64,000 nt of DNA. Origin: an uncultured Gammaproteobacteria bacterium (GTDB lineage Bacteria > Patescibacteriota > Patescibacteriia > CAZSQN01). The position numbers were made by a program, and so were the translations under genes. This document shows positions 720 through 57,098 of this stretch, piece after piece. The stretch lies in contig CAZSQN010000001.1 in the NCBI GenBank assembly GCA_964609095.1, forward strand, positions 11,901 to 75,900. The letters run 5' to 3'. Each line of letters starts with the position of its first letter. The first letter of the stretch is position 1. Below the pieces are notes generated by a model. It made no database searches, had not been told where the DNA came from, and saw only the letters and a list, made by a program, of their open reading frames with translations.

Positions 720-841
720 AAATGTTCTGGTCTCGAGACACACAGATGTCGCAGACATCTCCAGTCTCGCGATCAGGCTCAAATCTTTCGACTTCGCTCA
801 AGCTTATCCTGGGCAGGCGTCGAAGGATAACAACTGATCGT

Positions 842-3070
842 ATGCAAACACAAAAATTTTCCCTTGAATGGGCAGGAAGGAATCTTGAAATTGAAGTCGG
901 CAAATTTGCCGGCCAGGCCAACGGCGCCTGCACCGTCCGCTACGGCGACACCGTGGTTCTGGCCACCGCCACCATGTCCGATAATATCCGCGAAGGCATT
1001 GGATTTTTTCCTTTAATGGTGGATTATGAGGAACGGCTTTACGCCGCCGGCAAAATAAAGAGCTCCCGGTTTATGAAGCGCGAAGGCCGGCCGACGGACG
1101 AAGCCATTCTTACCGGACGCCTGGTAGACCGCTCCATCCGCCCGCTTTTTGACGACCGGATGCGCAACGATATTCAGGTCGTGCTTACCGTTTTCTCCGT
1201 TGACGGAGAAAATGATTCCGATATTCCGGCCTTGGTTGCCGCTTCCGCCGCTCTCATGATTTCCGATATTCCCTGGGATGGGCCGATCGCCGGAATCAGA
1301 ATAGGAAAAGTCGGCGATGAATTGGTTCTTAACCCGACCTTTGCCGCCCGCGAAAAGAGCGAACTTGATTTGGTTGTGGCCGGAACAAAAGAAAAAGTAA
1401 TCATGCTTGAGGCCGGCGCCAAAGAGCTTCCGGAAGAAACGGTCAGAGAAGCCGTCGCTCTGGCCCAAAAGCATTTGCACGCGGTAAGCGAATTCATCAA
1501 AGAAATAAAAAACAAGGTGGGTAAAGAAAAAAGAATCGTAGACGCCCCTCCGGCAACGGAAGAAGAAGCTGCCGCCCGCGAGGAAGAAAAAGTTATTGTC
1601 CAAAAAACCGAGGAATTCCTTGTTTCCCGCTACGAGAACGCTCTTTTCGGCAACCCGCAAGCGTCTAAAAAAGAAAAGCGCACGGCCCGCGAAGAGCTTG
1701 AAGAAAAAGTTGACGAGCACTTAAAAGAATCGGGCTACGGAAAAGAAAAAAGAAAAATCGGCGTTGAGCATGCCGGCCTTTATATGGAACAAGCGGTGAG
1801 CAAGGCGATTCTGGATAAGAACCTCCGGGTTGACGGACGCTCTCTTACCGACATCAGGCCGCTTTCCGTTGAAATATCCGCCATACCGCGCACGCACGGC
1901 TCGGCCGTTTTCTCCCGCGGAGAAACGCAGGTCTTAAACGCGGTCACGCTCGGCGCTCCGGGCGACGAGCAGACGCTTGAAGGCATGGAGCTTTCCGGAA
2001 AAAAGCGCTATTTCCACCACTATAATTTTCCTTCCTACTCCGTCGGCGAAACCGGACCGAACCGCGGTCCGGGCAGGCGCGAGATAGGACACGGCGCTTT
2101 AGCCGAACGCGCCGTTGAGCCGCTGCTTCCTCCGCGCGAAGAATTCCCGTATACCATCAGGTCGGTTTCCGAAGTCCTGTCTTCAAACGGCTCGTCTTCT
2201 ATGGCCTCAACCTGCTCCTCGTCTTTGGCTCTGATGGACGCCGGAGTTCCGTTAAAGTCGCACTGCGCCGGCATTGCCATGGGCTTGGCTTCCGATGACT
2301 CCGGCCGCTGGAAGGTCCTGACCGACCTCCAGGATTTGGAAGACGGCGACGGCGGCATGGACTTTAAAATAGCCGGAACGAGAATTGGAATCACCGCCAT
2401 CCAAATGGATACAAAAACCAGCGGCTTAACGCCGGAAATAGTTGAAATTACGCTAAAGCAGGCGCACGAAGCCAGAATGAAGATACTTGATGCCATGGAA
2501 GCCGTGATTCCGGCTCCGCGCCCGGAACTTTCTCCTTATGCCCCGCGCATAATTTCCTTCCACATCAATCCCGACTCCATCCGCACCGTTATCGGCCCCG
2601 GCGGAAAAATGATCAACGAAATCATAGACAAAACCGGCGTGACTATTGACATAGAAAACGACGGCTTGGTTTTGATAACTTCAACCAATGCCGAGGCGGC
2701 GCAAAAAGCCAGCGAGTGGATTAAAAATCTGACGCGGGAAGTAAAAGTTGGAGAGATATTTGAAGGCAAGGTCACCCGCCTTATGGAATTCGGGGCTTTT
2801 GTGGAAATTCTGCCCAAACAAGAAGGGCTGGTGCATATTTCCGAACTATCCGACAAGCGGGTTGATCGCGTTTCCGATGTGGTGAATATCGGCGATACGG
2901 TTTCGGTTAAAGTTATAGAAATTGACTCCATGGGCCGCACCAATCTTTCCATGCGGCAAGCGAAAAATCCCGACGCGCCGGTTGAAGTGCGCAAAAGAGA
3001 CGAGGGCGACCGCCGCGGCCGCGAACCAAGAAGAGAGCGGAGAGGCCCGCCGCGCGGACACGGCCGCTAA
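842..3070 (+). CDS. pnp: polynucleotide phosphorylase (PNPase)
   Basis: long ORF with N-terminal RNase PH repeats (GKFAGQANGACTVRYGDTVVLATA), KH and S1 domains at C-terminus (EGKVTRLMEFGAFVEILP); start chosen at internal MQTQKF (842) rather than ORF-track start 722. Confidence 0.93.
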   Translation: MQTQKFSLEWAGRNLEIEVGKFAGQANGACTVRYGDTVVLATATMSDNIREGIGFFPLMVDYEERLYAAGKIKSSRFMKREGRPTDEAILTGRLVDRSIRPLFDDRMRNDIQVVLTVFSVDGENDSDIPALVAASAALMISDIPWDGPIAGIRIGKVGDELVLNPTFAAREKSELDLVVAGTKEKVIMLEAGAKELPEETVREAVALAQKHLHAVSEFIKEIKNKVGKEKRIVDAPPATEEEAAAREEEKVIVQKTEEFLVSRYENALFGNPQASKKEKRTAREELEEKVDEHLKESGYGKEKRKIGVEHAGLYMEQAVSKAILDKNLRVDGRSLTDIRPLSVEISAIPRTHGSAVFSRGETQVLNAVTLGAPGDEQTLEGMELSGKKRYFHHYNFPSYSVGETGPNRGPGRREIGHGALAERAVEPLLPPREEFPYTIRSVSEVLSSNGSSSMASTCSSSLALMDAGVPLKSHCAGIAMGLASDDSGRWKVLTDLQDLEDGDGGMDFKIAGTRIGITAIQMDTKTSGLTPEIVEITLKQAHEARMKILDAMEAVIPAPRPELSPYAPRIISFHINPDSIRTVIGPGGKMINEIIDKTGVTIDIENDGLVLITSTNAEAAQKASEWIKNLTREVKVGEIFEGKVTRLMEFGAFVEILPKQEGLVHISELSDKRVDRVSDVVNIGDTVSVKVIEIDSMGRTNLSMRQAKNPDAPVEVRKRDEGDRRGREPRRERRGPPRGHGR

Positions 3071-3088: not shown

Positions 3089-4009
3089 ATGAGTCCCGTT
3101 TTTGCTGAAACGGCAGTTTCGCAAATTAATAAAAAATTATCAAAGGCGCCCAAAACGGCGAAAATTCTTATCATCGGCGTCCTTTTTGCTATTGCCTCAA
3201 ATATGGTCTTTAACTCGGTTCAACGGAAAATTGAGCCGATTGACGCCTGGAGCGAGGAAACCGTTTTGGTCATCCGCCGCCGCGCCAAGACGGATGAATT
3301 CTGGATTAGCGTAAAAGAAACGTTGATTTCCCTTGACCCGGAGTTCGGCGAGGCGTTAAAAAAAGTGGAGCAGAAAACAACCGTATCCCCTTTTGATTTG
3401 GCCCGGAAGATGCTTCCGGAACCGACAGAGCTTTTGATTATTAAAAAAGCCAACGCGGAAAACAGCGGCCTTCAATACGACTTTGCGCTGGTCACAAAAG
3501 CGGTCGGTCCGGGTATTGAAAATCTTCCGGCGGTTTTGGCGGCGGCGCGCGATTTCGCTTCCTGGTATCTGCCAAAGAAGCGGCTGGCAAAACTGCAAGA
3601 CGGCGCGACAATAACCGCGAATTTCGCGGACCCGTCAGATATACAAATAAAAAACGGCTCTTACAGGGGTTATGAGATAAAGTTTATACGCGAACCTGGT
3701 CTGCCTTTTGAATTTGCTTATGCCCAAAACAGCGGCTGGCTGTTATTTGCCACCTCCAAACTGGCTTTGGAGCAGCTTCTGGGCAGAGACGAACAAAAAA
3801 TTGATTTTAACTCCTTTAAGAGAAATTGCGCTTCGCCGAATAAGGAGATAGAAGTGTTTTTTAACCCCAAGCTGTTTAAAGTGGAGCAGACCCTGAATCC
3901 TATGGCTTTGGGCGGCCCGGTGCGGGCTCTTGTTCCCCTGTTTGATTCCAAGACAACAAAAGTAGTGGCCGATGGCGTGGTCTTAAGCTGGAAGAGGTGC
4001 GGCTTCTGA
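3089..4009 (+). CDS. hypothetical protein with one N-terminal TM helix
   Basis: 306-aa ORF, hydrophobic stretch AKILIIGVLFAIASNMVF; no recognisable catalytic motif. Confidence 0.45.
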   Translation: MSPVFAETAVSQINKKLSKAPKTAKILIIGVLFAIASNMVFNSVQRKIEPIDAWSEETVLVIRRRAKTDEFWISVKETLISLDPEFGEALKKVEQKTTVSPFDLARKMLPEPTELLIIKKANAENSGLQYDFALVTKAVGPGIENLPAVLAAARDFASWYLPKKRLAKLQDGATITANFADPSDIQIKNGSYRGYEIKFIREPGLPFEFAYAQNSGWLLFATSKLALEQLLGRDEQKIDFNSFKRNCASPNKEIEVFFNPKLFKVEQTLNPMALGGPVRALVPLFDSKTTKVVADGVVLSWKRCGF

Positions 4010-4164
4010 ATAAAAGCTGTGCATAACCCTGTGGAAAAGACCGTCCATATGTGGATAATCAAACAGCTTTTAAGCAATGAGATCGTTGATATCTCTGTGC
4101 ACAAATATATTAGACGCTAGGATATCCGCCATTTTGAGCCGTTTCCCCTTCATGGCCGACCGGG

Positions 4165-4193
4165 TTGACATTGAGTTTATTTCCTGATATAAT
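4165..4193 (+). promoter_or_regulatory. consensus sigma70-type promoter (TTGACA-17 nt-TATAAT)
   Basis: ttgaca at 4165-4170, 17-nt spacer, tataat at 4188-4193; no plus-strand ORF for about 590 nt downstream. Confidence 0.55.
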
Positions 4194-4199
4194 AGAAGC

Positions 4200-4560
4200 G
4201 TACAATTGTTCATTCCCAAATAAGAGAACTGCGCCGTAAAGAGTTAAGACGCAATTCCCTCTTCTCTACTAACCTAACATTTTAGGGGTTTCGGCCCCTC
4301 AAAAACAAAAAGAAAAGAAAAACCATTTTCTTCGGGCAAACCTGCATAAATTCCGCATTTTATGCGGAAATTGGTCCCTACCCAAGGATGGTAGAGAAGA
4401 TAAGTTCCTTTGTGGATTTTCATAGGTCTGCGCATGATTGCCGCATACTGGCGTCCCTCGCGGAGAGACACCGGTACGCGGCGGTCACGCAGCGATTGAA
4501 AATCCGAGGCGCGAGATGCCTCTAAGCAACTTTGTTTTTTGAGGCGACAACTCGCGCCTT
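4200..4560 (+). ncRNA. candidate non-coding RNA of about 360 nt, unclassified, in a 620-bp ORF-free region
   Basis: begins just downstream of the consensus promoter; several hairpins (aggggtttcggcccct, ccgcattttatgcgg, ctacccaaggatggtag); ends with stem aggcgcgag...ctcgcgcct followed by tttgtattt; I could not find RNase P, tmRNA or SRP signatures. Confidence 0.3.
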
Positions 4561-4633
4561 TTGTATTTGCGCAATCTTTGCAAAATTGCCATTATTTTTA
4601 TCTTTGTGTAAGGTATAAATATCCCAATAACCA

Positions 4634-4790
4634 CCCCGCACACAACTTGATTTAGGGGCGCTTTATATACACAACAATAGAACAGAAGAGTGTTTTAAAC
4701 TAAAAATAAATATTATTAAAAAACAAACACATCTTGATAATTGAAGCGGCATATTTATATATGCTTCAATAAAACAAGTTGTGTGCGGGG
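4634..4790. mobile_element. MITE/REP-like palindromic element (termini CCCCGCACACAACTTG / CAAGTTGTGTGCGGGG), copy H, 157 bp
   Basis: perfect 16-nt terminal inverted repeat; the element ends 1 nt before the ATG of the downstream DksA-like gene. Confidence 0.6.
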
Positions 4791-4791
4791 T

Positions 4792-5172
4792 ATGGATGAA
4801 AAAACTCTTAAAGAAATAGAACAGCGCCTGCTTGAAGAAAAAGACCGGCTTCTGAGAGAACTTAATCAGTTTACTCGCAAGAATCCTCATAACCCTGATG
4901 ATTATGACGCCAAATTTACGGAATTGCCCGAAGGCGCCGGCGCCGCTTCAGAAGAAGAAAACGCTTATCAGGTGACAACCTATAGCGACAACCTGTCAAT
5001 GGAGCGCACGCTTGAATCGTTGTTAAAAGACGTAAATAAAGCTCTCGCGCGCCTCGCCAAAGGCGAGTATGGCACTTGCCGCCATTGCGGCAAGCCAATA
5101 GACCCGAAACGGCTTTTGGCCAGGCCAACTTCTTCTTCGTGCATAGAATGCAAAAAACGGCTCACGGAATAA
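4792..5172 (+). CDS. DksA/TraR-family C4 zinc-finger protein
   Basis: coiled-coil N-terminus then C-x2-C-x17-C-x2-C (CRHCGKPIDPKRLLARPTSSSCIECK); start at MDEKTLKEIEQ. Confidence 0.7.
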   Translation: MDEKTLKEIEQRLLEEKDRLLRELNQFTRKNPHNPDDYDAKFTELPEGAGAASEEENAYQVTTYSDNLSMERTLESLLKDVNKALARLAKGEYGTCRHCGKPIDPKRLLARPTSSSCIECKKRLTE

Positions 5173-18540: not shown

Positions 18541-18700
18541 GTATGTCCGTTTTGGCATAAATTTATGAGGCGTTAATTGTTTAGATATTAATTATACACA
18601 TATTTTCAACAGTTTATCAACATTTTGATAAATTTTACTATATCTTCTATCTCATATATGATTGTGTTATAGTGTTTTTAGAATTCTTGAACCATCTTTT
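18541..18700. promoter_or_regulatory. rpmH-dnaA divergent intergenic region; candidate oriC / dnaA promoter
   Basis: AT-rich; near-consensus DnaA box TTATCAACA at about 18613 and TGTGTTATA nearby. Confidence 0.35.
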
Positions 18701-20083
18701 ATGGAGCCATCAACTCTCTGGCAGGCGACCTTGGGCGAGCTGGAACTCCAGCTTTCAAAGGTCCACTTTCTGACCTGGTTTAAAAATACCTACATCTCTT
18801 CCATGAACGATGGACGAATAACTATTAGCGTCCCCAATACATTTACTAAAACCTGGCTTGAAAAAAGATACCATACCGCCATCCTGAAAGCGCTTCAACA
18901 TGTCCTGAATATCCCCGTGCGCGATATATCCTACGAGGTTAGAGCGGTCGCCGATACAAAAATCAGCTCCGCCCCGCCATCCGGCTTTGGGACATCCTCC
19001 GCCCCAATGGAGCGCGGACGAATCAAAGATCTACCGACCGTTGCCGAAACAGTTAACAAATACGGTCTCAGGGTAAATTATACTTTTGAGAATTATATAG
19101 TCGGGAAAGGCAATGAGCTTGCCCATGCGGCGGCGCAAGCGGTCGCCGATAATCCCGGCCAGAAATATAACCCTCTTTTTATTTATGGCGGCGTTGGTTT
19201 AGGGAAGACCCATCTTATCCAGGCGATTGGCAACAGATTGCTTCAAAAAAATCCCCACGCCAAAGTCCTTTATATTACTTCGGAACAATTTACCAATGAT
19301 TTTGTCAATGCCATGAGAAGCGGCAGTGGAAAAGAATTCAAGGAACGTTATCGCAATGTTGATATTCTTTTAATTGACGACGTCCAGTTTATATCTGGAA
19401 AAGAAGGCACCAAAGAAGAGCTTTTTCATACTTTTAACACCCTCCACCATGCCGGACGCCAGGTCGTCTTTACTTCCGACCGCCCGCCAAAGGAAATAGG
19501 GGCGGAAGAACGGTTAAAATCAAGATTTGAGTGGGGTGCCACCGTTGATATCTCCATTCCCGATCTGGAAACAAGAATCGCCATTTTAAGCCATAAGTGC
19601 GGGGAAAAACAAATAAATATTTCGACCGAGATACTTCATTTTATCGCCTCTGCCCTTCAATCAAACGTAAGAGAGCTTGAAGGTGCTTTGAATAAGATTA
19701 TTGCCAATTATCAGCTAAGAAATACCCCCATCTCGCTTGAGACGACCAAGGCGCTGCTTTCCGGGTTTGCCAATAATTCGGGCAAAAAATCCCTCACTCC
19801 CAAATTCCTGATTGAGGCGGTGACAAATTATTATGATTTATCCATTGACGATATAATCGGCAAAAGCCGCGAACAAAAGCTCGCCTTTCCCCGCCAGATT
19901 ATAATGTTCCTTTTGCGCGAAGAGCTTGAGGTTTCCTATCCCTCAATCGGCAAAGAAATCGGCGGCCGCGACCATACTACAGCCATGCACGCTTATAACA
20001 AAATAAAATTTGAAATAGAAAATGATGAGCGGGTTAAAAGAGATGTGGAAATTATTAAACAGCGCCTTTATAACAGTGCATAA
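18701..20083 (+). CDS. dnaA: chromosomal replication initiator DnaA
   Basis: Walker A GGVGLGKTHL, sensor motifs, C-terminal DNA-binding helix; start at MEPSTLWQ. Confidence 0.95.
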   Translation: MEPSTLWQATLGELELQLSKVHFLTWFKNTYISSMNDGRITISVPNTFTKTWLEKRYHTAILKALQHVLNIPVRDISYEVRAVADTKISSAPPSGFGTSSAPMERGRIKDLPTVAETVNKYGLRVNYTFENYIVGKGNELAHAAAQAVADNPGQKYNPLFIYGGVGLGKTHLIQAIGNRLLQKNPHAKVLYITSEQFTNDFVNAMRSGSGKEFKERYRNVDILLIDDVQFISGKEGTKEELFHTFNTLHHAGRQVVFTSDRPPKEIGAEERLKSRFEWGATVDISIPDLETRIAILSHKCGEKQINISTEILHFIASALQSNVRELEGALNKIIANYQLRNTPISLETTKALLSGFANNSGKKSLTPKFLIEAVTNYYDLSIDDIIGKSREQKLAFPRQIIMFLLREELEVSYPSIGKEIGGRDHTTAMHAYNKIKFEIENDERVKRDVEIIKQRLYNSA

Positions 20084-57026: not shown

Positions 57027-57098
57027 TGCGCGTGCTAGGATTCGAACCTAGAACCAGTCGTGTATAAGACGACGGCTCTACCATTGAGCTACACGCGC
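57027..57098 (-). tRNA. tRNA-Ile (anticodon TAT / UAU)
   Basis: revcomp GCGCGTGTAGCTCAATGGTAGAGCCGTCGTCTTATACACGACTGGTTCTAGGTTCGAATCCTAGCACGCGCA; anticodon stem GTCGT/ACGAC, loop CTTATAC; flanked by 15-nt inverted repeat atgacaacaaatat / atatttgttgtcat. Confidence 0.75.

Follow-up and report, generated by a model that had tools for sequence, protein, structure and literature searches.

A candidate structured RNA gene between pnp and a dksA-like gene in Uhrbacteria-like Patescibacteria

Members of the Candidate Phyla Radiation (CPR), or Patescibacteria, make up a large share of bacterial diversity and have tiny genomes, and we know of almost no experimentally characterised noncoding RNAs (ncRNAs) from them beyond the universal ones. 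Among RNAs described from bacteria, 6S RNA is an extended hairpin of ~180 nt with a large central bubble, by which it mimics an open promoter. Mycobacterial Ms1, credited to Hnilicova et al. in 2014, is reportedly one phylum's own RNA polymerase-binding RNA, ~300 nt long and unrelated to 6S in sequence. The raiA motif RNA, OLE, ROOL and GOLLD are large orphan ncRNAs, each a stand-alone gene confined to one lineage. The present work concerns a 64-kb stretch of contig CAZSQN010000001.1, called the window throughout, in which positions 4200-4565 of the plus strand form a predicted stand-alone gene for a highly structured ncRNA of ~365 nt, equipped with its own promoter and its own intrinsic terminator.

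The gene and its homologues

The initial annotation had proposed a structured ncRNA at 4165-4560 on the strength of a consensus sigma-70 promoter, a following region without a plausible open reading frame (ORF), several stable hairpins and a terminal stem with a U-run, and all four of these features were confirmed. The promoter matches the consensus at 12 of 12 positions (TTGACA at 4165-4170, a spacer of 17 nt and TATAAT at 4188-4193), with an extended -10 TG at 4185-4186, one base ahead of the -10 hexamer; it is the single perfect TTGACA-17-TATAAT within the window, where permitting one mismatch yields 4 matches against 0.22 expected. Between 4200 and 4630 every ORF on either strand is of 65 aa or less, and across 28 full-length homologues none is conserved in position, strand or length, for which reason a small-ORF reading was rejected. 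When folded, the plus strand of 4200-4572 reached a minimum free energy of -140.9 kcal/mol (z = -7.1), with 0 of 100 shuffles as good; the minus strand of the candidate region likewise folds well (z = -9.6), as expected of any hairpin-rich DNA. A GC-rich branched hairpin at 4507-4560, with the stem GAGGCGCGAG...CTCGCGCCTT, is followed by the U-run TTTTGTATTTG. Transcription is predicted to start at G4200, within a conserved GUAC, and to end in the U-run after the terminator, at ~4563-4570; the end first placed at 4560 thus lay within a few bases of the predicted 3' end, whereas the RNA begins at ~4200 rather than at 4165.

4165-4193, plus strand: sigma-70 promoter, TTGACA, 17-nt spacer and TATAAT with TG extended -10; consensus match, in the same place in 30/30 homologues
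4200-4565, plus strand: ncRNA gene, ~365 nt; nhmmer match at 4205-4567, covariance-model match at 4221-4401

The PNPase encoded at 722-3070 places the window in Patescibacteria, its best relatives being labelled Candidatus Uhrbacteria at an identity of no more than 65%. Weak collinear nucleotide matches to the candidate region were first found in three PNPase-anchored loci, which share one layout: DnaA-box-like repeats, a sigma-70 promoter, ~360 ORF-free bases, a terminator and a DksA/TraR-type gene. Homologues were drawn from a motif search, from 80 metagenome loci anchored on the dksA-like protein, from iterated nhmmer searches and from a covariance model of the 5' domain, R1; the nhmmer iterations and R1 recognised ~60 homologues among 161 loci, in Uhrbacteria-like Patescibacteria. 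Among the sampling sites from which the contigs derive are Hainich and Rifle. All members share the strand of dksA, and the full-length ones average 365 nt, with a range of 328-454. A promoter of the form TTGAC(N)-17/18-(TG)N-TAnnnT precedes 30/30 members with enough upstream sequence, and a terminator with a U-run ends every member shown. R1 matched nothing in loci labelled Buchananbacteria, Nealsonbacteria, Peregrinibacteria, Saccharibacteria and others, and gave only a marginal match in Falkowbacteria-labelled loci; as far as sampled, the RNA family appears restricted to Uhrbacteria-like members of the CPR. In the complete genome OZ246408.1, the RNA lies near 67.8 kb.

Covariation and fold of the RNA

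The elements of the RNA in the window, on which the comparative results below are based, are as follows.

4208-4216, plus strand: 5' pyrimidine motif GUUCAUUCC, single-stranded, consensus G[U/C]UC[Y/A]UU; conserved in nearly all members
4223-4260, plus strand: hairpin P2, base AGAGA...UCCCU with a variable tip; 14 pairs, all changing on both sides, with 90% of cells paired
4261-4275, plus strand: 5' strand of P3 (box 1, CUUCUCUACUAACCU), pairing with 4385-4399 (inverted repeat I2)
4300-4324, plus strand: A-rich single-stranded motif CAAAAACAAAAAGAAAAGAAAAACC (family consensus AAAACAAAAACAAAA); in almost all members
4334-4383, plus strand: P4 arm, in which GGG at 4334-4336 pairs with CCC at 4381-4383 and encloses the hairpin UUCCGCA...UGCGGAA at 4351-4369; the family helix GGNN...NNCC covaries
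4385-4399, plus strand: 3' strand of P3 (box 2, AGGAUGGUAGAGAAG), pairing with box 1
4414-4506, plus strand: P5, a long near-perfect hairpin GGAUUUUCA...UGAAAAUCC; structure kept, sequence variable, covarying in the clade of L091-like members
4507-4570, plus strand: P6, the branched terminator hairpin GAGGCGCGAG...CUCGCGCCUU and U-run; the outer stem GGCGC.../...GCGCC recurs and covaries

When 29 5' domains were aligned with MAFFT, RNAalifold predicted 28 pairs, of which 22 show compensatory changes. This independent result agrees with that from a 48-sequence alignment fitted to the covariance model, a procedure that favours pairing: in P2 and P3, 90.3% of cells were paired, against 70.4% in shuffled alignments and 45-54% when the partners were slid by 1-3 columns; 24 of the 28 pairs changed on both sides (270 cells), against 18.4 pairs (76 cells) after shuffling; and the covariation score was 0.566 against 0.205. 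On all five measures, 0 of 500 shuffles reached the observed value.

Helix P4 was found as GGUU/AACC, GGUA/UACC, GGAA/UUCC, GGGA/UCCC and GGCA/UGCC; its third and fourth pairs occur as UA, AU, GC, CG and GU, each of the two being canonical in 32 of 37 cases. These variants were tabulated from per-sequence folds, which bias the table towards pairing, because a generic diagonal search of the covariance-model alignment, in which unpaired model columns are aligned by sequence, found no signal for P4. The 3' domain has an identity of only 31% across the family and does not align; since the MAFFT alignments of whole RNAs and of 3' domains were too poor, its covariation was tested within one clade only, the L091-like members, where 17 of 27 pairs in P5 and P6 are compensated. 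The outer stem of P6 was seen as CAAG/CUUG, CCAG/CUGG and CUAG/CUAG. Frequent G-U pairs, an invariant U-G wobble and the asymmetry of the R1 score on the window (95.3 bits on the plus strand against 13.9 bits on the minus strand) identify the plus strand as the one transcribed. Together these data identify a genuine structured RNA, with compensatory changes above both shuffled and slid controls and a clear strand asymmetry; combined with the promoters and terminators conserved in homologues, they bear out the proposal of a discrete structured ncRNA gene driven by the promoter first noticed.

The RNA is bipartite: the 5' domain is conserved in sequence, and the 3' domain, consisting of P5 and P6, is variable in sequence and kept in structure. 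In the family, P3 is a helix of ~14 bp, CUUCUCUACUnUUC / GAAnGGUAGAGAAG, that closes a junction, and its ACU/GGU step, three consecutive pairs A-U, C-G and U-G, is invariant in 47-48 of 48 sequences. The AAAACAAAAACAAAA segment lies inside this junction, where a small hairpin usually presents it as a loop, and it reads AAC-AAA-AAC-AAA, an (ARN)4 pattern; in the window, a local hairpin at 4285-4298 precedes the A-rich motif. No consistent partner for the 5' GUUCYUU motif was found within the RNA. The linker after box 2 is often GUUCCUUU, and in some clades the tip of P2 carries an insertion with a CACCCCACG loop.

Three further observations concern parts of this fold. A CACCCCA(CG) loop motif is present in the P2-tip insertion of L003, L004, L005, L007, L011, L015, L020, L029 and L077, and the similar CACACCCCA stands after P5 in L091, L092, L098 and L101, a clade without that insertion, as if one motif had been placed at different sites of the fold. 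In L003 (9988-10100) and L005 (9884-9985) a triple repeat runs GUCAUCUUG, CAAGAUGAGAC, GUCAUCUUG, an X/X'/X arrangement whose middle segment, CAAGAUGAGAC, can pair with either neighbour, so that either a local hairpin follows box 2 or a long-range helix encloses P5; the subclade may have a conformational switch of its own. In the window, the A-rich motif at 4297-4310 (CCTCAAAAACAAAA) shows 86% complementarity to the terminator-hairpin loop at 4531-4544 (TTTGTTTTTTGAGG; inverted repeat I3), a pairing that was treated as chance because other members lack it.

Candidate roles of the RNA and its surroundings

The reading that we favour, tentatively and at slightly below even confidence, is that the RNA acts in trans as part of a ribonucleoprotein (RNP), binding one or more proteins. 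A stable and abundant trans-acting RNA would present the A-rich loop, the 5' pyrimidine motif and the invariant P3 ACU/GGU step as recognition surfaces for one or more proteins, and would scaffold or sequester its protein partner in the manner of the 6S, Ms1 and CrcZ RNAs. The conservation of sequence in the A-rich motif, the ACU/GGU step and the 5' motif suggests recognition beyond mere pairing, and the consensus promoters and origin-proximal housekeeping neighbours suggest that expression is high and either constitutive or growth-linked. Hfq binds single-stranded (ARN)4 patterns of this kind, and proteins of the S1 or KH type are further candidate binders. Transcription, judging from conserved boxes upstream, would probably be coupled to the replication initiator DnaA.

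4018-4058, minus strand: cluster of three DnaA boxes, TGTGCATAA at 4018, TGTGGAAAA at 4030 and a perfect TGTGGATAA at 4050 (reverse complement of TTATCCACA); sequence match

This cluster stands just after the stop codon of the upstream gene, and a weaker box, TGTGCACAA, follows at 4097-4105. In 30/30 members examined, one to four boxes, mostly perfect, are found ~100-165 nt upstream of the 5' motif of the RNA; the density there, 1.97 per 320 nt, compares with 0.015 elsewhere in the loci and amounts to an enrichment of ~130-fold. Where boxes are paired, they typically stand at a distance of 31 bp and point the same way (L003, L004, L007, L011, L015, L020, L029, L077 and others).

Several points weigh against a protein-binding RNA under the control of DnaA. 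Three pyrimidine-rich segments, namely the 5' motif, box 1 and GUUCCUUU, can compete for the purine-rich box 2, and these competing pairings, together with the X/X'/X triple of L003 and L005, hint at conformational switching, which would suit a sensor as well as a scaffold. No consistent complementary target for the 5' motif was found in the flanking genes. A functional connection, acting in cis or in trans, could underlie the tight synteny of the RNA and dksA. The DnaA boxes are ~80 nt upstream of the -35 hexamer, far for simple repression, and may serve DnaA titration or an origin rather than regulation of the RNA; because synteny is conserved, a role of the boxes at the RNA promoter, in titration or at an origin would look alike. 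Both ends of the transcript are predictions.

Elements assigned above to protein binding would also serve a base-pairing regulatory small RNA (sRNA), which we consider unlikely but the best of the alternatives to a trans-acting RNP. In such an sRNA, the 5' GUUCYUU motif would be a seed for purine-rich, Shine-Dalgarno-like sites in mRNAs, and an Hfq-like chaperone would attach to the A-rich loop and the U-tail (class II). The 5' motif is conserved and unpaired, without a partner inside the RNA, and the ARN repeat in nearly all members and the terminator U-tail in all members shown are, at the level of sequence, what would be expected of an Hfq class II RNA. Against this, a length of 365 nt, five covarying helices and an invariant helix sequence amount to far more architecture than seed-type sRNAs need, and the absence of a consistent complementary site in the flanking genes counts here too.

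Downstream, the RNA is followed by a dksA-like gene, and the initial annotation had named, as an alternative to a discrete RNA, a long 5' untranslated region of this gene.

4792-5172, plus strand: DksA/TraR-type zinc-finger gene, a syntenic neighbour outside the RNA; Pfam PF01258, E = 3.4e-9; own promoter in most homologues

That alternative was not supported. Its regulatory form, a riboswitch or attenuator leader of a dksA-lspA operon in which the 5' domain would be the sensor and P5/P6 an expression platform with a regulated terminator, draws on the facts that the RNA is always oriented as dksA and usually directly upstream of it, that its conserved 5' domain, its variable 3' part and the terminator at the end recall the layout of riboswitches, and that alternative pairings of box 2 and the X/X'/X triple are available. 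However, a second near-consensus promoter lies between the terminator and the ATG of dksA in many members (L006, L099, L107, L105, L153, L154 and L146; for example TTGACA-17-TAAAAT in L006, TTGACG-17-TATAAT in L107 and TTGACA-17-TATACT in L154), and clade A members have an extended -10 element ahead of dksA instead. The RNA of L086 has retained DnaA box, promoter and terminator, yet it is followed by a gene for a 666-aa membrane protein that has a TTGACA-17-TATTAT promoter of its own, with dksA another 2.3 kb downstream; in L151, L119 and L121, the RNA is ~1-2 kb upstream of dksA. The conserved terminator, the separate dksA promoters and the intervening gene of L086 therefore argue for a stand-alone gene and not a leader. 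In some clades box 2 can pair alternatively with the following GUUCCUUU; no antiterminator conserved family-wide was found, the 3' domain being too variable to align, and a stable hairpin of 90 nt separates the conserved domain from the terminator. Very strong consensus promoters would also be unusual for the leader of a small regulator gene. On this evidence, a cis-regulatory leader is quite improbable.

The 224 nt between terminator and dksA in the window are mostly one copy (4633-4791) of a dispersed palindromic element with the ends CCCCGCACA(C/T)AAC(T)T, which has 10 matches in the window against 0.57 expected; other positions are 24488, 26783, 29503/29686, 33805, 41741 and 53595/53691. 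Several copies stand as inverted pairs on either side of 80-180 nt of AT-rich DNA, in the manner of a miniature inverted-repeat transposable element or a repetitive extragenic palindromic element, and L028 and L081 have different palindromes at the same place between RNA and dksA.

The boxes upstream raise the further alternative of a replication-linked transcript, in which they would mark oriC or a DnaA-regulatory site and the promoter or the RNA would serve origin activation, priming, or titration or regulation of DnaA. The 4018-4058 cluster is the densest group of DnaA boxes with no more than one mismatch in the window, which also holds dnaA itself at 18662-20083, and boxes, often two 31 bp apart, are conserved in 30/30 members. 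The intergenic region just upstream of dnaA (~18592-18614) has two imperfect boxes only and hence gives no obvious sign of an origin beside that gene. Over the first 24 kb GC skew stays near zero, and from there on it is positive, a course that neither pins the origin to dnaA nor locates oriC within the window. Most members, however, have only one to three boxes, and no conserved AT-rich unwinding element follows, the AT-rich 4650-4790 being a species-specific palindromic insertion. Covariation at the level of RNA, including G-U pairs, points to selection on the fold itself and not on transcription alone. A replication-linked transcript is accordingly a long shot.

The gene order around the RNA is conserved: NYN nuclease, PNPase (pnp), a variable gene, the RNA, DksA/TraR, LspA and ComM. 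The NYN-domain nuclease gene (61-654) stands directly upstream of pnp, a position conserved across loci, so the RNA sits near two RNA-processing genes. The gene between pnp and the RNA (3089-4009) encodes 306 aa with an N-terminal hydrophobic segment; the protein has no Pfam domain and no tblastn relative in the other syntenic loci, and was rejected as a conserved partner on these grounds. Elsewhere a similar-sized gene fills its slot, a fast-evolving protein amid a conserved block.

Comparison with known RNA classes

From its length, the initial annotation had suggested RNase P RNA, transfer-messenger RNA (tmRNA) or another housekeeping RNA, and this was not borne out. Rfam 15 at gathering score detected only four tRNAs in the window, and a permissive scan of 3950-4850 (E <= 10) returned only chance matches of the miRNA type; none of the families singled out at the outset (RNaseP_bact_a/b, tmRNA, 6S, SRP) was found over the candidate region. 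At the position of the RNA, nothing was matched at gathering score in 19 homologue loci, nor at E <= 5 in 11 further member loci, where, as in all permissive scans, scores below ~10 bits are unlisted; what the homologue scans did return were tRNAs and chance matches of the miRNA type. RF00010 and RF00011, the RNase P RNA models, matched neither the window nor anything in the 30 scans made of homologue loci, and ARAGORN found no tmRNA in the window. As a separate observation, a tRNA-Ile with the anticodon TAT (UAU) is predicted at 57027-57098 on the minus strand; such a tRNA is an uncommon bacterial way of reading AUA.

Defining motifs were also sought by a regular-expression census of the 28 full-length members. 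Of the universally conserved RNase P motifs that form its helix P4, CR-I (GGAAAGUCC-like) occurred in 0-1/28 and CR-IV ACAGAA in 0/28; CR-V GGCUUA-like strings were seen in 4/28, at inconsistent positions. The P1 pairing of RNase P is absent, the 5' end of the RNA being a conserved unpaired motif and the 3' end a self-contained terminator hairpin. The tmRNA T-arm (GGUUCGAnUCC) was found in 0/28, a T-arm/CCA end is absent, no conserved ORF offers a tag reading frame, and there is no tRNA-like domain, the two ends of the RNA being unpaired with each other. The domain IV motif (GGAA / AGCA loops) of signal recognition particle (SRP) RNA occurred in 1/28, with no Rfam SRP match. As for 6S, the RNA is 328-454 nt long and multi-branched, its sole long hairpin, P5, is near-perfectly paired, and RF00013 gave no match.

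Known RNase P RNAs of the CPR are diverged and score below Rfam thresholds, yet many of their conserved features persist, and RF00010 still recovers them once thresholds are lowered (Lui et al. 2021, PMC8172020); nothing of that diverged-but-recoverable kind was seen at the RNA locus or its homologues. Hence, although the RNA is of a length (~365 nt) resembling RNase P RNA or tmRNA and the window reportedly encodes RnpA, a strongly diverged form of RNase P RNA, tmRNA, 6S RNA or SRP RNA is largely refuted and in our judgement extremely improbable, given the lack of an Rfam match in 12 members at E <= 5-10 and in 20 loci at gathering score, the motif census, the unpaired ends and a multi-branched fold that is not a 6S-type rod.

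No description of this RNA was found in the literature searched. With no match in Rfam and none of the defining features sought of RNase P RNA, tmRNA, 6S RNA or SRP RNA, the family is therefore rated as new and previously uncatalogued; novelty of mechanism is a separate matter. A more specific form of the trans-acting RNP, possible but rather doubtful, is a lineage-specific housekeeping RNP RNA of Uhrbacteria-type CPR whose synthesis is wired to DnaA and which would be either a 6S/Ms1 analogue acting on RNA polymerase with the DksA-like factor or a wholly new RNP. If true, this would give the CPR its first lineage-specific class of large ncRNA. A strongly promoted RNA of ~365 nt with five covarying helices, kept in reduced genomes, implies an important function, and the constant pairing with DnaA boxes and a DksA-type neighbour suggests a link between replication initiation, transcription control and RNA. 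The family offers a defined target for structure determination and pull-downs, and an annotation model for a gene that current pipelines call "intergenic".

Set beside the known systems, the RNA resembles RNase P RNA in its similar length, in being structured and presumably strongly expressed and in belonging to a genome with rnpA, and differs from it in lacking the P1 and P4 pairings, CR-I to CR-V and any covariance-model match. With CrcZ and the Hfq class II sRNAs it shares a single-stranded A-rich AAN/ARN repeat (AAC AAA AAC AAA) and a terminator U-tail, which are the two elements that Hfq contacts; CrcZ, of ~400 nt and working by protein sequestration, has six A-rich motifs as opposed to one per RNA here, and the extensive conserved architecture of tertiary type seen here is unlike CrcZ or class II sRNAs. 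As in 6S and Ms1, described as abundant housekeeping-type RNAs made from strong promoters, the promoter is predicted to be strong, and a 6S/Ms1-like role would fit the adjacency to a DksA-type RNA polymerase-binding factor, RNA polymerase binding being pure conjecture; unlike 6S, the RNA is not a rod with a large central bubble, P5 being a near-perfect duplex and the 5' domain a multi-way junction. The likeness to the raiA motif RNA, OLE, ROOL and GOLLD lies in a stand-alone gene with its own promoter and terminator, in a covarying multi-helix architecture confined to one lineage, and in a function not evident from sequence; as the raiA RNA adjoins raiA, so this RNA adjoins a stress- or translation-related gene without being its riboswitch. 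Those four RNAs are all in Rfam, whereas the present one matches none of them in sequence or structure; it is smaller than OLE, ROOL and GOLLD, and its A-rich loop, its ACU/GGU step and its upstream DnaA boxes are its own.

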